From assembly GCA_041600715.1 (NCBI GenBank), contig JBFIJM010000001.1, positions 256,387-320,386 on the forward strand: DNA of 64,000 nucleotides, read 5' to 3'. The position numbers were made by a program, and so were the translations under genes. Under the pieces are notes generated by a model. That model saw nothing but the letters and a program-made list of their open reading frames with translations. It had not been told where the DNA came from and made no database searches. Of this stretch, positions 2,720-41,576 are shown in pieces (the stretch's first letter is position 1; every line of letters begins with the position of its first letter). Source of the stretch: Candidatus Saccharimonadales bacterium (GTDB lineage: Bacteria > Patescibacteriota > Saccharimonadia > Saccharimonadales > 2-12-FULL-41-12).

Positions 2720-3106
2720 CTACGTCTTAGACGCAACCTTCTTAGCTGTGCCACCTACAGTTGTCTTCTTACCGCGACGTGTGCGAGCATTTGTTTTAGT
2801 TCTCTGGCCACGGCTTGGTAGGTTGGCCTTATGACGGATACCACGATAAGCATTTATATCTTTTAATCGTTTGATGTTACCAGATACTATTCGTTGAAGT
2901 TCACCTTCTACAGTGTACTTTTCAGATATAACGTCTGTTATACGACCAATTTCTGCATCTGTCAGATCTTTAACTCTTACAGTCGGCTCCACCTTAGCAG
3001 ACTCCACAATTTCTGACGCAAACTTAGGACCAACTCCATAAATGTACGTTAACGCAATCTGAATTTGTTTTTCGTTGGGTATTGTAACCCCTGATATTCG
3101 AGCCAT
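2720..3106 (-). CDS. rpsM: 30S ribosomal protein S13
   Basis: 128-aa ORF starting MARISGVTIPNEKQIQIALTYIYGVG. Confidence 0.97.
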   Translation of the reverse strand: MARISGVTIPNEKQIQIALTYIYGVGPKFASEIVESAKVEPTVRVKDLTDAEIGRITDVISEKYTVEGELQRIVSGNIKRLKDINAYRGIRHKANLPSRGQRTKTNARTRRGKKTTVGGTAKKVASKT

Positions 3107-3109
3107 GTA

Positions 3110-3226
3110 TTAACCCTGCCTTTGCTTATGCTTAGGCTTTAATTTATTGATAACATAAAGTCTGCCTTTACGACGAACAATCTTGTCGTCTGGCGAGATC
3201 TTTTTTACACTTGCACGTACTTTCAT
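3110..3226 (-). CDS. rpmJ: 50S ribosomal protein L36 (cysteine-free form)
   Basis: Not in the ORF track because it is 38 aa. Own translation gives [41 protein letters not shown] at 3224-3226, TAA at 3110-3112, and the gene sits between infA and rpsM. Confidence 0.92.
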
Positions 3227-7217: not shown

Positions 7218-7302
7218 GGTAACTCCTATTGTCGTTACAGGAACAAGGAAATAGGAACTAAGAACTAGTTCAGCTAATTTCGAATTTCTGATTTCTAATT
7301 TC
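7218..7302 (-). repeat. Heptad-repeat hairpin element, copy B (rplF|rplR gap)
   Basis: Plus strand reads GGTAACTCCT...CAGGAACAAGGAAATAGGAACTAAGAACTAGTTCAGCTAATTTCGAATTTCTGATTTCTAATTTC. By eye it is roughly 85-90 percent identical to copy C. Confidence 0.85.
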
Positions 7303-9909: not shown

Positions 9910-10217
9910 TACGCCTTCTCCTCATCTGTATCGGTCTTAGACGATGTTTCGATTAAATCTAGATCATCTTTTGTTATAGACGCACGTTCTAATATTGTAT
10001 TTAACTTATATCGTTTACGAGCTGACAGAGGTCGAGTTTCTACGATAGCAACTAGGTCACCAATTTGACACTCATTATTCTCGTCATGAGCCATGAACTT
10101 ACTAGTTACGGTGTACTGCTTTTTATACAGTGGATGGGTTTTTCTGGTCTGTACTGTAATGACAATGGTTTTGTCAGTAGCAACAGATGAAACAGTTCCA
10201 GTCAGTGTTTTTGCCAT
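9909..10217 (-). CDS. rpsQ: 30S ribosomal protein S17
   Basis: 102-aa ORF with [19 protein letters not shown] and [13 protein letters not shown], plus an acidic C-terminal tail. Confidence 0.96.
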
Positions 10218-10417
10218 TACATAGCCTCCTTATTGAGCTGTTCGCTCATTACACTTAGCATTCTTGCCAAATCTTTTCGCTTAGTCCTGAGTGATCTTAC
10301 ATTTTGAGTCTCGCCCATATGAATACGTCGGCGTAGTTCAGCGATTTCTTCACGTGTGGTGTTGACTGCATTAGCGATCTCTTCGGTTTTCATTTTTCTT
10401 ATTTCTATGGCTTTCAT
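10217..10417 (-). CDS. rpmC: 50S ribosomal protein L29
   Basis: 66-aa ORF containing [13 protein letters not shown]...[13 protein letters not shown], positioned between rplP and rpsQ. Confidence 0.94.
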
Positions 10418-10830
10418 GACTCTACCTCGCGTACAATAAACTTCGTTTTAACTGGGAGCTTATGTGCTGCAAGTCGCATAGCTTCACGAGCAACCTCTTC
10501 TGTTACGCCCTGCATCTCGAATAATACAGTTCCAGGACGGACTTTAGCTACGAAGAATTCTGGGGATCCTTTACCGCCACCCATCTTAAGACCAAGAGGT
10601 TTGCGGGTTACCGGCATGTGAGGGAAAATTCTTATCCAGATTTTGCCACCACGCTTGATATAGCGGGTCATAGCCTGACGAGATGATTCGATCTGACGTG
10701 AGGTGATACGCTCAGTGCCTAGAGACTGGAGAGCATATTGACCAAAAGCAATAGTGTTGCCACTAGTCGCAGGACCCTTTAGTCGGCCCTTTCGCACTCG
10801 TCGGTGCTTTGTTTTATTTGGAACCAACAT
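10414..10830 (-). CDS. rplP: 50S ribosomal protein L16
   Basis: 138-aa ORF starting [19 protein letters not shown], with ...[15 protein letters not shown]. Confidence 0.97.
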
Positions 10831-11459
10831 TACAGCTGTTCTCCCTTATATATCCATACTTTAACGCCTATGACACCTGCTGGTGTTTTAGCTCTTGCGC
10901 CATGGTAATCAATTTCTGCACGTATTGTATGAAGCGGAACACTTCCTTGCACTTCTTTCTCACGGCGTGACATTTCTGCTCCGTTTAAGCGACCAGCAAC
11001 TTCGATACGAATACCAAGTGCACCAGCACGCATAGTTGCGGCAGCTGACTGCTTGATTGCACGTCTAAAAGATATACGTCGCTCGAGTTGGTGTGCGATG
11101 TTTTCTGCTACAAGTTTTGCATATAATTCAGATTTCTTAATTTCTTCAATATTTACACGAGTCTGCACTCCATAAACACGTTCGATTTTAGTTTTTAGTT
11201 CTTGAGCGCCGGCCCCGCCTCGACCAATAACTACACCAGCTTTAGCTGTAGAAATAGTGACAGTGACAAGGTTAGGAGAACGTTCAATATCCACTTTGTT
11301 TATTGCAGCGCGTGAACCAAGATCTTTCATGATCATTCTGCGCACTTCAAGATCTTGAGTTAAGTATCGTGCATAGTCCTTCTTACTAGCGAACCACTTG
11401 CTCCGCCAATCTCTATTGACCTGAAGACGCATGCTAATTGGGTTTACTTTTTGGCCCAT
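10830..11459 (-). CDS. rpsC: 30S ribosomal protein S3
   Basis: The track ORF was trimmed to the ATG at 11457-11459 ([18 protein letters not shown]), 1 nt after the rplV stop. Contains a KH domain motif, [11 protein letters not shown]. Confidence 0.96.
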
Positions 11460-11460
11460 A

Positions 11461-11856
11461 TTATTTTGCCTCCTTCTTAGCTGGCTTTGTTTTCTCTGTA
11501 GTAACAGCCTTTTTAGGAGCTCGGATTTCTCCGTTAACCTGTACATATATATGGCTAGATTTACGCTGGAATGGAAGTGCACGACCGTGTGATGCTGGAC
11601 GGTATCTCTTTATTCGAGGTCCCGGGGTAACAGTGATGCTCTCGATCACCAAAGTTTCTGGCTTATAGTTATGATTGTTATCGGCGTTAGCTCGAGCACT
11701 CTCTATAACCTTTCTGACAGGAACTGCAGAACGACGTGGAGTGTGCTCAAGGATAGTTAACGCATCGGCAACAGTACGGCCACGTACTAGCGAGGCTACG
11801 ACTCCAACTTTACGAGGGCTCATTCTGACGCCCATTGCAGAAGCTTTAACACTCAT
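11461..11856 (-). CDS. rplV: 50S ribosomal protein L22
   Basis: 131-aa ORF with RMSPRKVGVVASLVRGRTVADALTILEHTP. Confidence 0.97.
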   Translation of the reverse strand: MSVKASAMGVRMSPRKVGVVASLVRGRTVADALTILEHTPRRSAVPVRKVIESARANADNNHNYKPETLVIESITVTPGPRIKRYRPASHGRALPFQRKSSHIYVQVNGEIRAPKKAVTTEKTKPAKKEAK

Positions 11857-36416: not shown

Positions 36417-36434
36417 CGTTTCACTAAATGAAAG

Positions 36435-36460
36435 TAGCTCCTCACTCGGGGCTATTTTTA
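36435..36460 (+). terminator. Intrinsic terminator of the 35694-36416 gene
   Basis: TAGCTCC-TCACTC-GGGGCTA followed by TTTTTA. It ends 2 nt before the attL repeat. Confidence 0.75.
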
Positions 36461-36462
36461 GT

Positions 36463-36483
36463 TGGTGCGCGAGAAAGGACTTG
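36463..36483. repeat. attL: orphan copy of the tRNA-Leu 3' end
   Basis: TGGTGCGCGAGAAAGGACTTG is identical to 41492-41512. Confidence 0.85.
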
Positions 36484-36610
36484 GTCACGTCCCGCGACCC
36501 CTGAAAAACATCTTTGAAAACCAGTTTTCAAGAGTTTATTCCTGTCCTGACTGCCACAGGCAGTCCTCCCCTTCACGCCTTAGGGTTTTGGTTCAAGGCA
36601 TTTCAAGCAA

Positions 36611-36643
36611 CGTAAAAACCAGCCACACGGACTGGTTTTTACG
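36611..36643 (-). terminator. Bidirectional-looking terminator downstream of the Nudix gene pair
   Basis: CGTAAAAACCAG-CCACACGGA-CTGGTTTTTACG. T-runs follow the stem on both strands. Confidence 0.65.
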
Positions 36644-36835
36644 TTGGTGCACCTGATGACAGATGTCTTGAACCTTTAGAGAGTATATCTGATTGGCTAC
36701 TAAGTAGTCCAGATGTAGACTGGAATTTACAGCTTAGGAATGCTTCACTATCTCGATTTGTGCCCCAGTATCAGCTCTGATAAGAGCGTGTTGTTACTCT
36801 CGCTAGAAGTCGTTTGAACCTAACACAGTATGTAT

Positions 36836-37285
36836 CTACCGTAAGTATTTATTATCAAGCAAGAATTTGTCTTGCTCGGCGTGCATTTTTTCTGGCAATT
36901 CAGTAAACCAGTCTCCACTGGAAGCCTCGTTATTAGGGGAGAGACTACCTTGGTATTCAATGACCTCAAAAACAATTCCAACGGGTGAATCTAAGCCATT
37001 CTCGTAGTGACTTGGGTATTCTATGTAGCCCTCTTGAGTTACCTTAGTGACTTTAATTGACAACTCTCGTTCAGCAATTCGCTTAACTGCTTCAACTAAT
37101 GGCTCACCAAATCTAACAGTGCCACCAACCAAGTGCCATTGCCCCTTACAAGGCTCAATAGCTCGCTTAGTGAGGTATATAGCACCTTCAGGATTTCGTA
37201 CAATCACTTCAACGGTCAGTCTTGGTACCTTAGAGTAAATTGAATCGAACTCCTCCTTACTCAAAGGTTGGTTATTTGCTTCCAT
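36836..37285 (-). CDS. Nudix hydrolase (GDP-mannose mannosyl hydrolase-like)
   Basis: 149-aa ORF with Nudix box GGTVRFGEPLVEAVKRIAERELS. From memory, the N-terminal layout (EEFDSIYSKVPRLTVEVIV...KGQWHLVGG) resembles NudD/Gmm-type enzymes. Confidence 0.8.
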   Translation of the reverse strand: MEANNQPLSKEEFDSIYSKVPRLTVEVIVRNPEGAIYLTKRAIEPCKGQWHLVGGTVRFGEPLVEAVKRIAERELSIKVTKVTQEGYIEYPSHYENGLDSPVGIVFEVIEYQGSLSPNNEASSGDWFTELPEKMHAEQDKFLLDNKYLR

Positions 37286-37288
37286 AGA

Positions 37289-37747
37289 TTAGAGAACTGC
37301 CTTATCCTCTAGCTGCTTTAGAACTTTTTCCCATAACGCAAAAGCTGAAGCGGGGATAACGTTACTAGGATTTGTTTTTAACAATTCTCTAATTTCCACC
37401 TTTGTAACCCAGTTGGTTTCAGCAACTTCTTCTTTATCTATGTTTAGATTTGCGTCAATCTTAGATTTATCAACAAGAGCATAATATATGCTGAAGCGTC
37501 GGGTCGCACCGTCAGGGTGGACAAAATCTTCCTCAAACAGTAACTCTGGTACGTAGAGGTTTGGCGTAAGCCCAAGTTCTTCTTCTGTTTCTCGCAACAA
37601 TCCTTGCTCGACGGTTTCTCCGTCTTCAAGCTTTCCCGTAACACTCGGTCCCCATAGGCTAGGGTCGTGAACCTTATGGTCAGCTCGCCGTGCTAACAGT
37701 AATTTCCCGTCATCATTTACAAGCCACAACACAGCAACATAATACAT
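37289..37747 (-). CDS. Nudix hydrolase
   Basis: 152-aa ORF with Nudix box TGKLEDGETVEQGLLRETEEELGL. It lies 3 nt upstream of the second Nudix gene. Confidence 0.85.
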   Translation of the reverse strand: MYYVAVLWLVNDDGKLLLARRADHKVHDPSLWGPSVTGKLEDGETVEQGLLRETEEELGLTPNLYVPELLFEEDFVHPDGATRRFSIYYALVDKSKIDANLNIDKEEVAETNWVTKVEIRELLKTNPSNVIPASAFALWEKVLKQLEDKAVL

Positions 37748-37944
37748 ACCTAAATCATATCACTACTTAAACCGCATAAGAACATTGCAGTCACGTCGCA
37801 CAATACTTATTCTGCGTCAGACAATAACAGGGGTAGAGGTCAATTTTTTACTACATAGGGGCGTGTCAAGTGCTAGAGTTATTTTCGCCCACCCCTGTTA
37901 TAAAACACCTTATACAATAATGGTGAATTAGCTAACTCATAGCA

Positions 37945-37974
37945 AAATGGAGAGGTACTAAGCCCTCTCCATTT
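37945..37974 (-). terminator. Hairpin downstream of the alpha/beta hydrolase gene
   Basis: AAATGGAGAGG-TACTAAGC-CCTCTCCATTT. Confidence 0.5.
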
Positions 37975-38025
37975 CTTATTGTTTTCAGCTCTTGAGCGTC
38001 ATAGTTAATTTCCTTTCTTAGCTTT

Positions 38026-38805
38026 CTAGGCTTGCTTTTCTTTAATCCATCGTGCAGTCGCTTCGTATAGTCGTTCCATTGCTCCATCTTCTATAAACGG
38101 ATGGGATGCGTCAGGAATAAGTATGTGTTCTGATTCTGCGTTAATGTTGTTAGCGTAATCTTTTCCGAAACGCTCCATAACCTCACCACTATTAGCTGCA
38201 TTTACGACAAGCGTATCAACCTTGAAGCTCTTTGCCATTTCTGTACTGCCTGGTGCATAGTCTTCAAAGACTTTACGGGACAGTACGTAGCCCGATCCAT
38301 TCGCTGAAACGTATGAATCAAGCTCTTTAATGTACATGAAGTCGTTCTCTAGGTTCTTTTTTGCCTGTGGTTCATCATAGCCATTTGTATGACTTGCGTC
38401 CCATAAAACAGCAGCGTCAAACGCTTGTTTTGCGGAGTATACAATCGCCATACCACTATAACTATGCCCTATCACACAAACCCATTCCGAACCTTGTTCT
38501 TTGACGTAATCAACAATCGTATCTATATCTGCTGCATTGGTTTTCACACCAAAGTCGCCAATGTTACGTTGCTTAGTATCGTCACCGTAAAAACTCACTC
38601 TTAAAGTCGCAATCCCTTGCTCTTCAAAGAAACGGGATGCGTTAAAGAGCAGTAGGTCGTGCATCCAACCACCCAAGCCAGGAGCTAGAACTGCTAGTGG
38701 AGAGCTGTAATCGCCACGCAATACACCGTGTATTTCTAATTCACTGTCAGGGATAGGAATATGCACTTCTGTTTCGTGCATAGAATCCAAACTAATCTTT
38801 TCCAT
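38026..38805 (-). CDS. Alpha/beta-fold hydrolase
   Basis: 259-aa ORF with a nucleophile elbow, GHSYSG, plus later Asp and His (IPDASHPF) in typical order. Confidence 0.8.
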   Translation of the reverse strand: MEKISLDSMHETEVHIPIPDSELEIHGVLRGDYSSPLAVLAPGLGGWMHDLLLFNASRFFEEQGIATLRVSFYGDDTKQRNIGDFGVKTNAADIDTIVDYVKEQGSEWVCVIGHSYSGMAIVYSAKQAFDAAVLWDASHTNGYDEPQAKKNLENDFMYIKELDSYVSANGSGYVLSRKVFEDYAPGSTEMAKSFKVDTLVVNAANSGEVMERFGKDYANNINAESEHILIPDASHPFIEDGAMERLYEATARWIKEKQA

Positions 38806-38822
38806 ATCAAACTCCTATAAAA

Positions 38823-38866
38823 AACCGAACAGTAATGACTTACTCAATCATACACCTGCTCGGTTT
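38823..38866 (-). terminator. Hairpin flanked by A and T runs, between the HTH gene region and the hydrolase gene
   Basis: AACCGAACAG pairs with CTGCTCGGTT (10 bp, 1 mismatch, 24-nt loop), flanked by AAAAA and TTTTT. Confidence 0.4.
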
Positions 38867-39259
38867 TTGAAGTTTGTTAGTTACTAAGGCACACTAAAAA
38901 GTCGCAGAGAATGTATGACTGATTTAGCGGATTTCGTAGAGTAACATAATTGATTATCATAATAACACTATATAGTGCTAATGTCAATTATTAGTCTGCT
39001 TACACTTCACTAACTACAGAGATATGCAGAATACCTCGACATAAACTCTAAAGCTTGTCCAAAGCTCTGAAAATGCGTCACAGAGCATGTTTTAGCTGGG
39101 GTTCTCGTTCATCTTTTGCACTCTGAAACTACATTCGTACTGTTCACGAGATTTTTTCTGATATTTTTGACCCTTAACGCCATTTTTCTGCCGTACATTT
39201 TCCTTACCTTGTCTGACACCAAATCTCTTAGAAATTGAGTGAGAGCATACAAGTTTTCG

Positions 39260-39508
39260 TTACATTGTCCGATAAGTACCAGAGCATAAATGACAGAGTA
39301 CAAACGTGCTCTGATTTTCGTATGCAGAGATTATCTTCTCAGTAAATAAAGGCTCGGTATTTAAGTAGCGATAGAACGTATCTCTGCTTACCTTAGCGTA
39401 ACGACAAGCGTCAGTGACATTGTAATTATTCTGAATAGCGTCAGCGATTTTGTCCATTATACTGATAGTTATTTTTGGTGGTCTACCATTTGATTTTTTA
39501 ATCATCAA
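39260..39508 (-). CDS. Small helix-turn-helix DNA-binding protein (82 aa)
   Basis: Contains GRPPKITISIMDKIADAIQNNYNVTDACRYAKVSRDTFYRYLN, a typical HTH. It is divergent from the recombinase operon and is a candidate regulator or directionality factor. Confidence 0.65.
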   Translation of the reverse strand: MMIKKSNGRPPKITISIMDKIADAIQNNYNVTDACRYAKVSRDTFYRYLNTEPLFTEKIISAYENQSTFVLCHLCSGTYRTM

Positions 39509-39567
39509 TCCTCCTTTTGTTTTTGGCGTTACCTCTCTTCTTATTATCTCAAAAACAGCATTTTAAC

Positions 39568-39596
39568 TTGACAATGCTTATGTTAAAGAGTATAAT
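39568..39596 (+). promoter_or_regulatory. Consensus sigma-70 promoter of the recombinase operon
   Basis: TTGACA (39568-39573), a 17-nt spacer, then TATAAT (39591-39596). Confidence 0.7.
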
Positions 39597-39694
39597 TAGA
39601 GGTACAGTAGTGAGTGCATTTTGTCACAGTACACGTAGGCACTAGCTAGGAATCTACCCATTAGTCTTTCGTACTTTCGAGTATTGACTGACAA

Positions 39695-39913
39695 ATGGAT
39701 GATAAATCCGAATTACAGTTTCAATCAAACACAATAGACCCGCAGCAAGAGGTAGGGGGTCGTTTTGTTGTATTAAGTAAAAATACCGATCACATAGACG
39801 ATGGGTTGATAGCCTATGCAGATGCTCTTGAAGCCATAGACGAAAACAAAGCAGCAGCAAAACTCAACGAGGTATCCATGATAGGTAATAATGGTAGTCG
39901 TATCTATTACTAA
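39695..39913 (+). CDS. Hypothetical acidic small protein (72 aa)
   Basis: The ORF lies between the promoter and the recombinase gene. No Shine-Dalgarno and no recognisable family. Confidence 0.35.
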   Translation: MDDKSELQFQSNTIDPQQEVGGRFVVLSKNTDHIDDGLIAYADALEAIDENKAAAKLNEVSMIGNNGSRIYY

Positions 39914-39929
39914 TCGGTATCATTAGGGT

Positions 39930-41513
39930 ATGTTGCTGCAAGAAGAAATTGACCGCACCAAATTACGTTACGTGCTATATGCTCGTCGTTCCACCACAGA
40001 TGAGGGTAGCCAGGTTCGTTCTGTACCTGACCAAATCAAGTACTGTAAACGTCACGCAGAGATAGCTGGGCTGAATATAGTAGCTACAGTCAGGGAAAAA
40101 GGGTCAGCTAAAAAGCCTGATAAGAAAATACGACCAAAGTTTTATGATTTACTTGAAGAAATAGAGAATGGTGGCAAGTATGACGCCATCCTTGCATACG
40201 CCCCTGACAGGCTCTCTCGCAATATGTTAGACGGTGGTCGTATCATCAACCTGCTAGACGAAGACAAAATAAAAGACCTACAATTTCCGACGCATCACTT
40301 TACGAACGATCCATCTGGAAAACTCACGCTCGGAATCATGTTCTCTATCTCTAAGCATTTCTCTGATGATCTATCACAGAAAGTGCGTAGAGGTGTATCT
40401 GGTAACTTTGATGACGGTAAATCCTCTGGATCGCCTAAGTGGGGCTATGACCGAAATGAACAGAGTGGGCTTTACGAACCTAACGACTGGTTCAACGTAA
40501 TTCAAGAAGCATGGTTCATGAGAGTAAAAGGCTCTACCAATAAAGCAATTCAAGAGTACTTACTTGAGAAAGATTATCATCGTGTTACTAAGGTAAATAA
40601 AAAGAATAAATACCCGAAGAAGATATATCCGACTGAAAAAAGTGTAGGTGTGATGTTTCAAGACCCTTTTTATTACGGGATACTTGAGCAAGCCAATCAG
40701 ACGATTGACCTAAGAACGGTATACGACTTTGAGCCAATGATTGACGAGGAAACATACAATCAAGTACAAGCTCTAGCTTACACTCGCAAACGTGATATTA
40801 ACCCCAAGAAAGGCTTTGAATTTAAGCCACTCACTAGGATGGTCTATTGTGGCGTATGCAAGAGTGATAGGTGGATGTTAGTAGGCAAAAACAAGCCAGG
40901 CGGTAGCGATCATCACGTCCTAACCTACCGTTGCGACAACAAAGACTGCACTCGCTATCCTAAGTCAGTCAGAGCGAAGTACGTGTTCAACGCTATTTAT
41001 GAGCTACTGGATAAACTAGAGCTGTCAGACGAAGCGTATGAGCGTTACAGCAAACGCATTGAGAGCTTTACAGACGATAAGATCATCAAGATTAAGAGTG
41101 ATATTGCCAGTAAACGTGGTGCGTATGCTCACAAGAAAAAAGAGCTTGATGATCTGTCACTTGGACTTAGTAAAATCAAACGAAGTTCATCAGCTTATGC
41201 AATCAACGAAGATAAGATTGAGCAGCTCGCTATTGAAACTCAAGAACTAGATGATGAGATCGACAAGCTCAAGGAAAAGATTGCTAATCCGAGCAAAATT
41301 AAGCTAACCAGAGATCAGTTCTTGAACCTCGTAAAATTAGCTCCTGACAAGATGAGAGCAGGTTCAGCAGTTGAAAAAGATCGTGTTGCGCGGATTTTGT
41401 TCTTGAACCTAACAATTGACAATGAAAAAAGGGTCTTCCCAATCTGGAAAGAACCCTTTGCAAGCCTTGTAAAGGCGATTGAAATGTCGTCTGGTGCGCG
41501 AGAAAGGACTTGA
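39930..41513 (+). CDS. Large serine recombinase (integrase)
   Basis: 527-aa ORF with N-terminal resolvase-type catalytic domain motifs (YARRST with Ser nucleophile, PDRLSRN), a central recombinase domain, a Cys cluster (CGVCKS...YRCDNKDC) and a C-terminal coiled coil. Its stop codon lies inside attR. Confidence 0.9.
   Translation: MLLQEEIDRTKLRYVLYARRSTTDEGSQVRSVPDQIKYCKRHAEIAGLNIVATVREKGSAKKPDKKIRPKFYDLLEEIENGGKYDAILAYAPDRLSRNMLDGGRIINLLDEDKIKDLQFPTHHFTNDPSGKLTLGIMFSISKHFSDDLSQKVRRGVSGNFDDGKSSGSPKWGYDRNEQSGLYEPNDWFNVIQEAWFMRVKGSTNKAIQEYLLEKDYHRVTKVNKKNKYPKKIYPTEKSVGVMFQDPFYYGILEQANQTIDLRTVYDFEPMIDEETYNQVQALAYTRKRDINPKKGFEFKPLTRMVYCGVCKSDRWMLVGKNKPGGSDHHVLTYRCDNKDCTRYPKSVRAKYVFNAIYELLDKLELSDEAYERYSKRIESFTDDKIIKIKSDIASKRGAYAHKKKELDDLSLGLSKIKRSSSAYAINEDKIEQLAIETQELDDEIDKLKEKIANPSKIKLTRDQFLNLVKLAPDKMRAGSAVEKDRVARILFLNLTIDNEKRVFPIWKEPFASLVKAIEMSSGARERT
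41492..41512. repeat. attR: repeat copy forming the 3' end of the intact tRNA-Leu
   Basis: TGGTGCGCGAGAAAGGACTTG is identical to 36463-36483. Confidence 0.85.
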
Positions 41514-41576
41514 ACCTTCACGCCCGAAGGCACTAGTTCCTAAGACTAGCGTGTCTACCAATTCCACCACTCGCGC
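41492..41576 (-). tRNA. tRNA-Leu (anticodon UAG), CCA encoded
   Basis: Hand-folded cloverleaf of GCGCGAGTGGTGGAATTGGTAGACACGCTAGTCTTAGGAACTAGTGCCTTCGGGCGTGAAGGTTCAAGTCCTTTCTCGCGCACCA. It has a 7-bp acceptor stem, anticodon stem CTAGT/ACTAG with loop CTTAGGA, a long variable arm (GCC-TTCG-GGC) and a T-loop TTCAAGT. Confidence 0.9.

Follow-up and report, generated by a model that had tools for sequence, protein, structure and literature searches.

This study concerns a putative integrative element at a tRNA-Leu(UAG) gene of a Candidatus Saccharimonadales bacterium. The stretch of DNA analysed, in the following called the window, comprises 64,000 nucleotides (assembly GCA_041600715.1, contig JBFIJM010000001.1, positions 256,387 to 320,386). 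At the locus, a membrane-protein gene with its terminator is followed by a fragment of a tRNA-Leu 3' end, three hydrolase-type genes, a gene for a helix-turn-helix (HTH) protein, a short open reading frame (ORF), the gene of a large serine recombinase (LSR) and the intact minus-strand tRNA-Leu(UAG) gene, which ARAGORN and Rfam call where the initial annotation had placed it (Table 1). The next gene downstream is RecG by homology. An LSR-borne integrative element at the 3' end of this tRNA gene, bounded by two copies of a 21-mer, had been proposed. The element itself is supported; its boundaries had to be revised. Judged across the family of related elements, it is quite probable that the locus carries a 4.85-kb integrative element of Patescibacteria (Candidate Phyla Radiation, CPR) which is moved by the LSR, has its attachment site attP inside the LSR gene and targets the tRNA 3' end, the 21-mer being unrelated. 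This reading draws on what the sequences themselves show: how the sites are built, that the gene is split, that the pattern runs through the family, and that empty sites and one circular relative exist; all evidence is computational.

The identification of the 527-aa ORF as an LSR was borne out by matches to Pfam Resolvase (7.3e-20, residues 15-159), Pfam Recombinase (2.4e-5, 25 bits, cut-off 21.1) and PHROG 95 integrase (1.3e-54, residues 8-502). The third Pfam profile proposed for this check, Zn_ribbon_recom, did not match the window protein; the domain is indicated by cysteines and helices. In an alignment of 18 LSR sequences, C307, C310, C335 and C340 are invariant and form a four-Cys zinc ribbon, as are S21 and R19 of the catalytic motif YAR(R/K)S. 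The AlphaFold model of the homolog P0108 contains a zinc ribbon with embedded coiled coil (beta-strands 304-346, paired long helices 365-411 and 419-450, predicted local distance difference test (pLDDT) about 90). Serine-recombinase profiles are the only ones matched by the LSR. As annotated, no tyrosine recombinase is apparent: the Phage_integrase profile found no match in the 10 ORFs scanned between 34691 and 42924, and none is listed among the precomputed Pfam families of the neighbours. By domain content and site logic the window recombinase would be classed as a large serine integrase, which presumably catalyses the attP x attB reaction.

Target tRNAs, junctions and the orphan 3' end of the recombinase gene

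The LSR stop codon (41511-41513) lies inside the tRNA-Leu gene, so that the six codons before it read the tRNA 3' end in reverse complement (terminal codons GGT GCG CGA GAA AGG ACT TGA). More than 500 LSR homologs were found, mostly from Saccharibacteria where named, and their C-termini likewise look tRNA-derived (...SSGA[RD]ERT). A scan of one genome per species yielded a set of 80 LSR loci from Saccharibacteria, several Microgenomates lineages and Peribacteria, designated here by L and a number like the other loci compared. Of the 69 loci whose contig extends further than the LSR gene, 55 have a convergent tRNA gene that overlaps its 3' end. The stop falls exactly 21 nt into the tRNA in 35 of these 55 loci, because TGA is the reverse complement of T55-C56-A57; in loci with a TTCGA T-loop the LSR frame continues past this point. 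The tRNAs overlapped are those for Leu (four anticodons), Pro (three), Met, Lys, Ile, Arg, Phe, Tyr and Val. From these convergent overlaps we infer that tRNA 3' ends are the target of the LSR family. According to Mageeney et al. (2020; PMC7192596), whose survey found only 14 candidate cases among 297, the use of tRNA genes by serine integrases had not been reported, and the annotation of such a target as unusual agrees with this. The related elements measure 3-10 kb and reside in CPR hosts; no phage or conjugation genes were seen. A scan of IMG/VR viral contigs returned distant relatives only (30% identical), whose LSRs likewise end in tRNA-Gly.

At the left end of the element, a conserved block of about 170 bp is present in every near relative, 2.4-5 kb upstream of the LSR and in one orientation, and it opens with a look-alike of the tRNA end. 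In the window the look-alike reads TGGTGCACCTGATGACAGATGTCTTGAACC, the real tRNA end TGGTGCGCGAGAAAGGACTTGAACC, and the gap between TGGTGC and CTTGAACC is exactly five bases longer in the former. This +5 spacing (TGGT to TTGAAC) was found at every left site with an identified look-alike (about 27 loci; Leu, Pro, Met, Phe, Arg, Tyr and Ile tRNAs). The design recurs in distant clades, where the first 6-17 bases of the look-alike match the tRNA of the same locus. At L053, for example, the tRNA-Met end reads TGGTGGGGGCGGTTGGGTTCG followed by AACC and the left site TGGTGGGGGCGGTTGGGAGGTTTGTG followed by AACT. Rutherford et al. (2013; PMC3783163) described a zinc-ribbon-domain motif at positions 16-24 in attP versus 11-19 in attB, and our offset agrees with this 5-bp shift, although it is seen for one arm, the other arm being uninformative. 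The zinc-ribbon domain may accordingly be what reads TTGAAC.

In each of the 22 loci compared, TGGTNN is common to the left and the right site, often with little beyond it. Judged from these junctions, the crossover would have to lie within or next to TGGTGC, at the CCA/discriminator end of the tRNA. Because only a few terminal tRNA bases would be exchanged, and for identical ones, the tRNA would stay intact and no long repeat would be needed. The initial annotation had pointed to a core of about 20 bp and to an unusual LSR target choice or attachment-site architecture; junctions that share TGGTGC only represent a normal short LSR core, and the supposed paradox disappears. The element would extend from about 36645 to 41497, core to core, and measure 4,847 bp, in place of the 5,029 bp between the 21-mers.

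The conserved block at the left end is, in all probability, coding and part of the LSR gene. When the LSR ORF is joined at TGGT to the left-end look-alike, an open extension of 43-50 codons results in 22 of 22 loci, whose LSRs are 34-86% identical and lie at eight tRNA species. The extension carries the conserved motif G-x-[AP]-E-x-x-x-[LF]-E-P-x-x-S-I-x-[DE]-W-...-Y-x-[LYF] before its stop codon; in the window the join reads ...IEMSSG-APDDRCLEPLESISDWLLSSPDVDWNLQLRNASLSRFVPQYQL and then the stop. A hidden Markov model (HMM) of the extension matched in 38 of the 80 LSR loci. The matches lie 1.5-8.8 kb upstream of the LSR, on its strand in every case, and there are none elsewhere; the window has a single one (36646-36777). 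Among ten close copies, substitutions number 312, 241 and 695 at codon positions 1, 2 and 3, and 444 synonymous codon differences fall in the frame of the extension compared with 90 and 65 in the other two. An earlier interpretation of the block as a small RNA whose 3' end resembles that of a tRNA (folding z = -3.1, no Rfam match) was dropped on the codon-position pattern and the fusion to the LSR.

An unsplit form was found in a relative of about 56% identity: P0108 is a 563-aa LSR with the extension, encoded on the circular metagenomic contig L143 (about 5.17 kb). Its circularity is read from a 30-nt overlap between the two ends of the 5204-bp contig, the length that assembly with k = 31 would leave on a circle. 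A second arrangement of this kind is the tandem array L152 (5368-10865) at tRNA-Pro(GGG), where the downstream one of two LSR elements overlaps the tRNA-Pro and the upstream LSR keeps its full length by reading into the orphan exon of the next element. The recombination site would accordingly be located inside the LSR gene, and integration would sever its last 43 codons.

Several side observations concern the related loci. At L144 (10001-17012) an LSR tail runs into a different element with a second large serine recombinase and a TrwB/DUF87-like ATPase. At L009 the left site (7267-7294) is a true 28-nt copy of the tRNA end joined to the orphan exon, the 5 extra bases being gone, and the LSR ORF (10001-11573) is broken; the locus looks like a decayed element whose P' arm was converted to B' spacing. 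In L014 (1-5300) the element has RecG and RsmD on its left side in inverted orientation, unlike in the window and in L007 and L008; this may be an inversion ending at the attachment region. Contigs L001, L005, L006, L010, L022, L026, L045, L050, L051, L057, L068 and L071 stop no more than tens of bases past the LSR stop or start exactly at the orphan exon, and such breaks at the attachment core indicate branching of the assembly graph, possibly from mixed occupied, empty and circular states.

The 21-nt repeat and its relic

The 21-mer TGGTGCGCGAGAAAGGACTTG occurs in the window at 36463-36483 and 41492-41512 only, even with up to 3 mismatches allowed (0 expected by chance), so that its description as an exact repeat stands. 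The right copy spans C56 to A76 of the tRNA-Leu with the CCA encoded and is indeed the T-loop-to-CCA end, and the left copy follows the terminator of the neighbouring gene, starting 3 nt past a terminator-like hairpin (36425-36459). The further step of taking these repeats for the attachment sites did not hold. Exact 21-mer direct repeats flank module units of 150-260 bp beside intact, LSR-free tRNA-Leu(UAG) genes at L084 (1268 and 1420), L096 (1975 and 2128) and L132 (1778 and 2039, syntenic with RsmD-RecG), and a relic is present without an LSR element at these three loci and at L137. Conversely, LSR elements reside at tRNA-Leu without any copy of the 21-mer in L002-L004, L008, L011 and L012. 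Since each of the two, relic and element, is found without the other, the 21-mer appears to predate the LSR element and to be unrelated to it. The left copy would be a pre-existing relic, the product of another event than LSR insertion.

The relic is dominated by a structured module of about 110 nt, of which 17 copies were detected in 12 of the sequences compared (nhmmer), always in the orientation of the adjacent tRNA. Compensatory changes affect 22 of its 35 predicted pairs, and no Rfam match was obtained. The start of the tRNA-Leu body remnant that follows it, CCTTCACGCC, overlaps the last bases of the module. A role of the module as part of the attP arm of the LSR was rejected, as it is present in LSR-free loci and inside pseudo-tRNAs.

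The copies measure about 105-113 nt and were located in L104 (2902-3012), L084 (1529-1640), L137 (387-481), L073 (11688-11785 and 11855-11952), L096 (three copies), L009 (319-422) and L003 (5848-5959), coordinates of metagenome loci being oriented with the tRNA on the minus strand. Extra tRNA-Leu copies carry the module in their T-loop, L137 and L073 have it in the anticodon loop, and other copies follow downstream of tRNA-Gly and tRNA-Val. The module could be an intron, a miniature mobile element or an arm of another integrative element. Arrays of units bounded by tRNA-Leu 21-mers (L132 1778-2059, L096 about 1708-2148, L084 1268-1440) look like miniature elements that insert into the T-loop. 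A few hundred bases from the module array of L096, at native positions 3078-3132 on the minus strand, a sub-threshold match to the Hammerhead type III model was noticed (39 bits versus a gathering cut-off of 48.5, E 1e-5).

A first alternative to the 4.85-kb element is that the full 5,029 bp between the 21-mers is mobile, by crossover in the T-loop, the last 21 nt of the tRNA being supplied by the element and the reaction being performed by this LSR with an unusually long core or by a tyrosine integrase in trans. The expected junctions would be TTTTTAGTTGGTGCGCGAGAAAGGACTTGAACCTTCACG, and GGACTTGGTCACGTCC preceded by ATGTCGTC, and the circle would join ...GGACTTG to GTCACGTCC. Besides the exactness and uniqueness of the repeat in the window, a full or near-full left copy of the 21-mer in L007, L014, L036 and L070 speaks for this explanation. 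The same repeat flanks the short units at LSR-free tRNA-Leu genes, however, and most family elements lack a repeat of this kind: when the 10 kb upstream of each LSR were searched for the tRNA 21-mer, either exact or allowing up to 5 mismatches, it was located in only about 8 loci, for which reason the T-loop crossover was abandoned. In the window and in L007, L014, L036 and L070 the look-alike with the orphan exon lies 110-190 bp inside (right of) the 21-mer, directly after the terminator, whereas in L002-L005, L008, L011 and L012 the look-alike abuts the chromosomal flank directly. Closed at the 21-mer, the circle would moreover end the LSR in codons that are not conserved, the stop coming after 12 of them here and after 3 in L007. 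We regard this explanation as very unlikely. The empty junction predicted from it, TTTTTAGT-TGGTGCG..., is probably wrong; ...GGTTTTTACGT-TGGTGCGCGAGAAAGGACTTGAACC would be expected.

Proposed integration scheme and occupancy of the site

The 4.85-kb element would follow the standard serine-integrase scheme (attL = B-P', attR = P-B'). In the excised form, a circle, the LSR gene would run across attP and encode a protein of 565 aa. attP would consist of LSR coding sequence (P arm), the TGGTGC core and the P' mimic of a tRNA end (TGGTGC...CTTGAACC), with the distal motif 5 bp further out than in the tRNA; the predicted site is ...ATTGAAATGTCGTC-TGGTGC-ACCTGATGACAGATGTCTTGAACC..., with the junction ATTGAAATGTCGTCTGGTGCACCTGATGACAGATGTCTTGAACC. 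attB would be the 3' end of tRNA-Leu(UAG), composed of the downstream flank (B), the CCA/discriminator core and the acceptor 3' strand plus T-arm (B'); it is predicted as ...GGTTTTTACGT-TGGTGC-GCGAGAAAGGACTTGAACC..., with the junction GGACTGGTTTTTACGTTGGTGCGCGAGAAAGGACTTGAACC. Recombination within or next to TGGTGC would insert the circle. Because the attachment site sits inside the LSR gene, the enzyme would lose its last 43 residues on insertion: the integrated gene would be cut 43 codons before its natural stop and continue with six surrogate codons and TGA from the tRNA, and the severed 44-codon 3' end would be left as an orphan at the far left of the element. On excision, ...ATGTCGTCTGGTGC would be joined to ACCTGATGACAG, the circle being closed at TGGTGC-ACCTGATG.

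The two isoforms may differ in activity or stability, integration itself being the switch. A plausible though tentative version is that the integration state sets the isoform: the 565-aa enzyme of the circle would carry a conserved tail of 43 residues that is needed for integration or limits its lifetime, and the 527-aa enzyme of the integrated element, with its tRNA-derived tail, would differ in activity, being inert or, given a partner, capable of excision alone. The conserved Y-x-[LYF] at the C-terminus may be a protease tag. The 72-aa or the 82-aa protein encoded upstream of the LSR is a candidate directionality factor. The 72-aa ORF is without a family match in the Pfam and PHROG scans, and the 82-aa HTH gene (family f4, about 455 bp upstream of the LSR) is kept in 14 related elements.

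Several points weigh against the proposed scheme. P0108 and its circular contig come from a different clade, and the arrangement could be a tandem duplication. Nearly all family members in protein databases represent the truncated form, and in a profile search over 1.84 billion representatives the top 150 matches stop before the tail, a search in which the LSR body dominates since one full-length row kept its columns. The near-universal truncated form means that excision may be rare or the truncated enzyme inactive. AlphaFold gives the extension low confidence (pLDDT 31-52), and a role of the tail is not indicated. As to the sites, the chromosomal B arm is without a conserved motif, beyond a T-rich terminator tail, by which the second half-site would be recognised, and no inverted TTGAAC is present in the left arms. 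The +5 spacing and the L-E-P codons (CTTGAACC) are confounded, as constraints on the DNA site and on the coding sequence fall on the same bases, and the crossover is located no more closely than within or next to TGGTGC. Finally, the loci with empty sites belong to relatives, with flanking proteins of 30-70% identity; neither an empty allele nor a circular junction for the exact species of the window was found among the look-ups of flanking proteins and the loci examined. Exact look-ups of the window's flanking proteins returned the same occupied locus or nothing; the read set SRR29257383 contains the identical locus.

These points touch on a second alternative, namely that the LSR and the genes around it have been domesticated and fixed in the chromosome, the LSR gene overlapping the tRNA by chance and the whole being currently immobile. 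The predominance of integrated, truncated copies in the databases fits this explanation, as does the fact that an excised form of the window's element was not seen. It conflicts with the occupancy of the site in relatives. The search for empty sites which the initial annotation had suggested was successful: in 60 of 60 metagenomic loci sharing the tRNA 3' 28-mer no LSR is present, and many keep the order HisRS...tRNA-Leu-RsmD-RecG, the tRNA-Leu(UAG) staying beside RsmD-RecG. Elements in the site that the window shares with L007 and L008 differ in cargo, the architecture recurs at no fewer than nine tRNA species, and a circular contig and tandem arrays exist among relatives. The orphan exon is kept open and under purifying selection, which requires that it is periodically rejoined with the LSR gene. 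Domestication is therefore considered highly improbable.

A third alternative is that the conserved block at the left end acts on its own, as a small gene or as a signal in DNA or RNA, and is in frame with the LSR by coincidence. Gene callers annotate ORFs of 47-77 aa there in some assemblies, which speaks for it; with the 44-aa tail as sole query, the only matches were six short ORFs, mis-called and each placed at the left end of an integrated element. Against it, the N-terminal parts of the called ORFs are mutually unrelated flank sequence, 7 of 10 near-clade copies, the window copy included, have no in-frame start between the extension and the nearest upstream stop, the peptide is fused to the complete LSR in P0108 on the circular contig, and the continuity in all 22 loci always starts from the shared TGGT. 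This alternative is extremely unlikely.

The remaining features are listed in Table 1. The divergent HTH gene, the consensus promoter and the hydrolase cargo described initially were all recovered, with two NUDIX hydrolases and one weakly matched alpha/beta-hydrolase-like gene. The approximately 40 conserved non-coding bases behind the orphan stop may function either in accessory binding or as terminator of the full-length gene. G+C content climbs where the HisRS gene starts (about 33250), from roughly 0.38 to roughly 0.47, and remains high until about 36.7 kb; in the element it amounts to 0.36-0.44.

Table 1. Features of the putative element and its flanks, in window coordinates.
Feature	Position	Strand	Basis
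Terminator-like hairpin of the upstream 240-aa membrane-protein gene; chromosomal flank	36425-36459	+	Hairpin and U-tail align to the end of a terminator-like Rfam model
Left 21-mer, orphan tRNA-Leu 3' end (C56-A76), part of a probable older relic	36463-36483	-	Identical repeat at LSR-free L084, L096, L132
Structured relic module of about 110 nt, three hairpins	36484-36596	-	Same module interrupts pseudo-tRNA copies elsewhere
Relic remainder: decayed tRNA-Leu body remnant, bidirectional terminator hairpin (about 36612-36640), ACGT; putative chromosomal B arm of attL	36597-36644		Alignment
Putative attL core TGGTGC; crossover predicted within or next to it	36645-36650	+	Left/right identity of at least TGGTNN in 22 loci
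Putative P' half-site, tRNA-3'-end look-alike TGGTGCACCTGATGACAGATGTCTTGAACCTTT	36645-36677	+	TGGTGC-to-CTTGAACC spacing 5 bp more than in tRNA
Probable orphan 3' end of the LSR gene, 44 codons (GAPDDRCLEPLESISDWLLSSPDVDWNLQLRNASLSRFVPQYQL) and TGA	36646-36780	+	Extension HMM E 2.8e-21; continuous with the LSR frame in the excised circle alone
Conserved non-coding stretch behind the orphan stop, with a second TTGAACC at its end (36814-36820)	36781-36820	+	Sequence comparison
Cargo: NUDIX hydrolase, 149 aa	36836-37285	-	Pfam NUDIX 3e-12
Cargo: NUDIX hydrolase, 152 aa	37289-37747	-	Pfam NUDIX 6e-20
Cargo: alpha/beta-hydrolase-like, 259 aa, weak match	38026-38805	-	Pfam Abhydrolase_6 2e-4 (below curated cut-off); PHROG esterase/lipase 3e-4
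HTH protein, 82 aa, candidate regulator or directionality factor	39260-39508	-	Pfam HTH_7 3e-5
Sigma-70 consensus promoter TTGACA-17-TATAAT, for 72-aa ORF and LSR operon	39568-39596	+	12/12 matches
72-aa ORF directly upstream of LSR, candidate directionality factor	39695-39913	+	Conserved in 16 related elements
LSR, integrated/truncated isoform, 527 aa	39930-41513	+	Profile matches; final 6 codons and TGA supplied by tRNA 3' end
Putative attR core TGGTGC, reverse complement of tRNA G72?-A73-C74-C75-A76 end	41492-41497	+	Junction comparison
tRNA-Leu(UAG), chromosomal; putative B' half-site (acceptor 3' strand and T-arm)	41492-41576	-	ARAGORN and Rfam, 58 bits

Comparison with known integration systems

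With the known large serine integrases (phiC31, Bxb1, A118/LI, SPbeta SprA, CcrAB, XisF) the window family shares the Resolvase and Recombinase domains, the four-Cys zinc ribbon and the long coiled coil, as well as the short attP/attB core and the element-side distal motif placed 5 bp further out than the chromosomal one. It differs in the targeting of tRNA 3' ends with an attP arm that mimics the tRNA end, in the position of attP inside the integrase ORF, so that integration alters the C-terminus, and in the CPR hosts and the small elements of 3-10 kb in which no phage or conjugation genes were seen. In the literature searched, the coverage of which is incomplete, no earlier description of CPR LSR-tRNA elements or of self-splitting serine integrases was found. 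The family would represent a new variant of LSR integration, in which a tRNA 3' end is targeted and the integrase truncates its own gene.

The family contradicts two generalisations, namely that serine integrases make no use of tRNA genes (PMC7192596) and that integrases which disrupt their own gene are confined to Archaea (PMC8371274). The isoform switch, if real, would be a built-in control of directionality or commitment, in the first case of a 'self-splitting' integrase that is neither archaeal nor of the tyrosine family. Serine integrases are major tools of genome engineering and their directionality control is an active structural question; here the reaction would rewrite the integrase's own gene. 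The P' arm would be a readable mimic of the target tRNA end, and attB specificity would thus be predictable from the element sequence and perhaps reprogrammable. The family is widespread in Saccharibacteria and other CPR, lineages with few mobile elements or genetic tools, to which tRNA 3' ends would offer ready landing sites.

The tRNA islands of tyrosine integrases (P4-like, Islander class) resemble the window element in the insertion at a tRNA 3' end, the restored tRNA and the tRNA-proximal integrase gene. The window element, however, is without a tyrosine recombinase, its block of identity comprises 6 bp versus about 15-50 bp in the islands, and its crossover is placed at the CCA end versus the T-loop or anticodon loop. 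For methods of island finding this implies caution, as the longest direct repeat beside the tRNA differed from the attachment site.

In mycobacteriophage BPs, attP lies in the repressor gene, and the integrated form of the repressor is 33 residues shorter and has lost an ssrA-like degradation tag (PMC4557955). This integration-dependent immunity and the window family have in common that attP is located inside a coding sequence and that integration shortens the protein C-terminally. In BPs the split gene is the repressor and the integrase is of the tyrosine type, whereas the window family splits the serine integrase itself.

SSV1-type integrases (SSV1, pTN3, pT26-2) target tRNA genes and carry their site within their own gene, which is partitioned on integration. 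These 'suicidal' tyrosine integrases were described as exclusive to Archaea in a 2021 review (PMC8371274). The attP of the window LSR likewise lies within its own gene, which is partitioned by integration. The SSV1-type enzymes are tyrosine recombinases whose gene is split into two substantial parts, presumably with inactivation; the bacterial serine recombinase of the window, in contrast, loses its last 43 residues only and keeps all recognised domains. The window LSR is a functional analogue of the SSV type in this one respect and a member of neither the SSV-type nor the BPs-type family.

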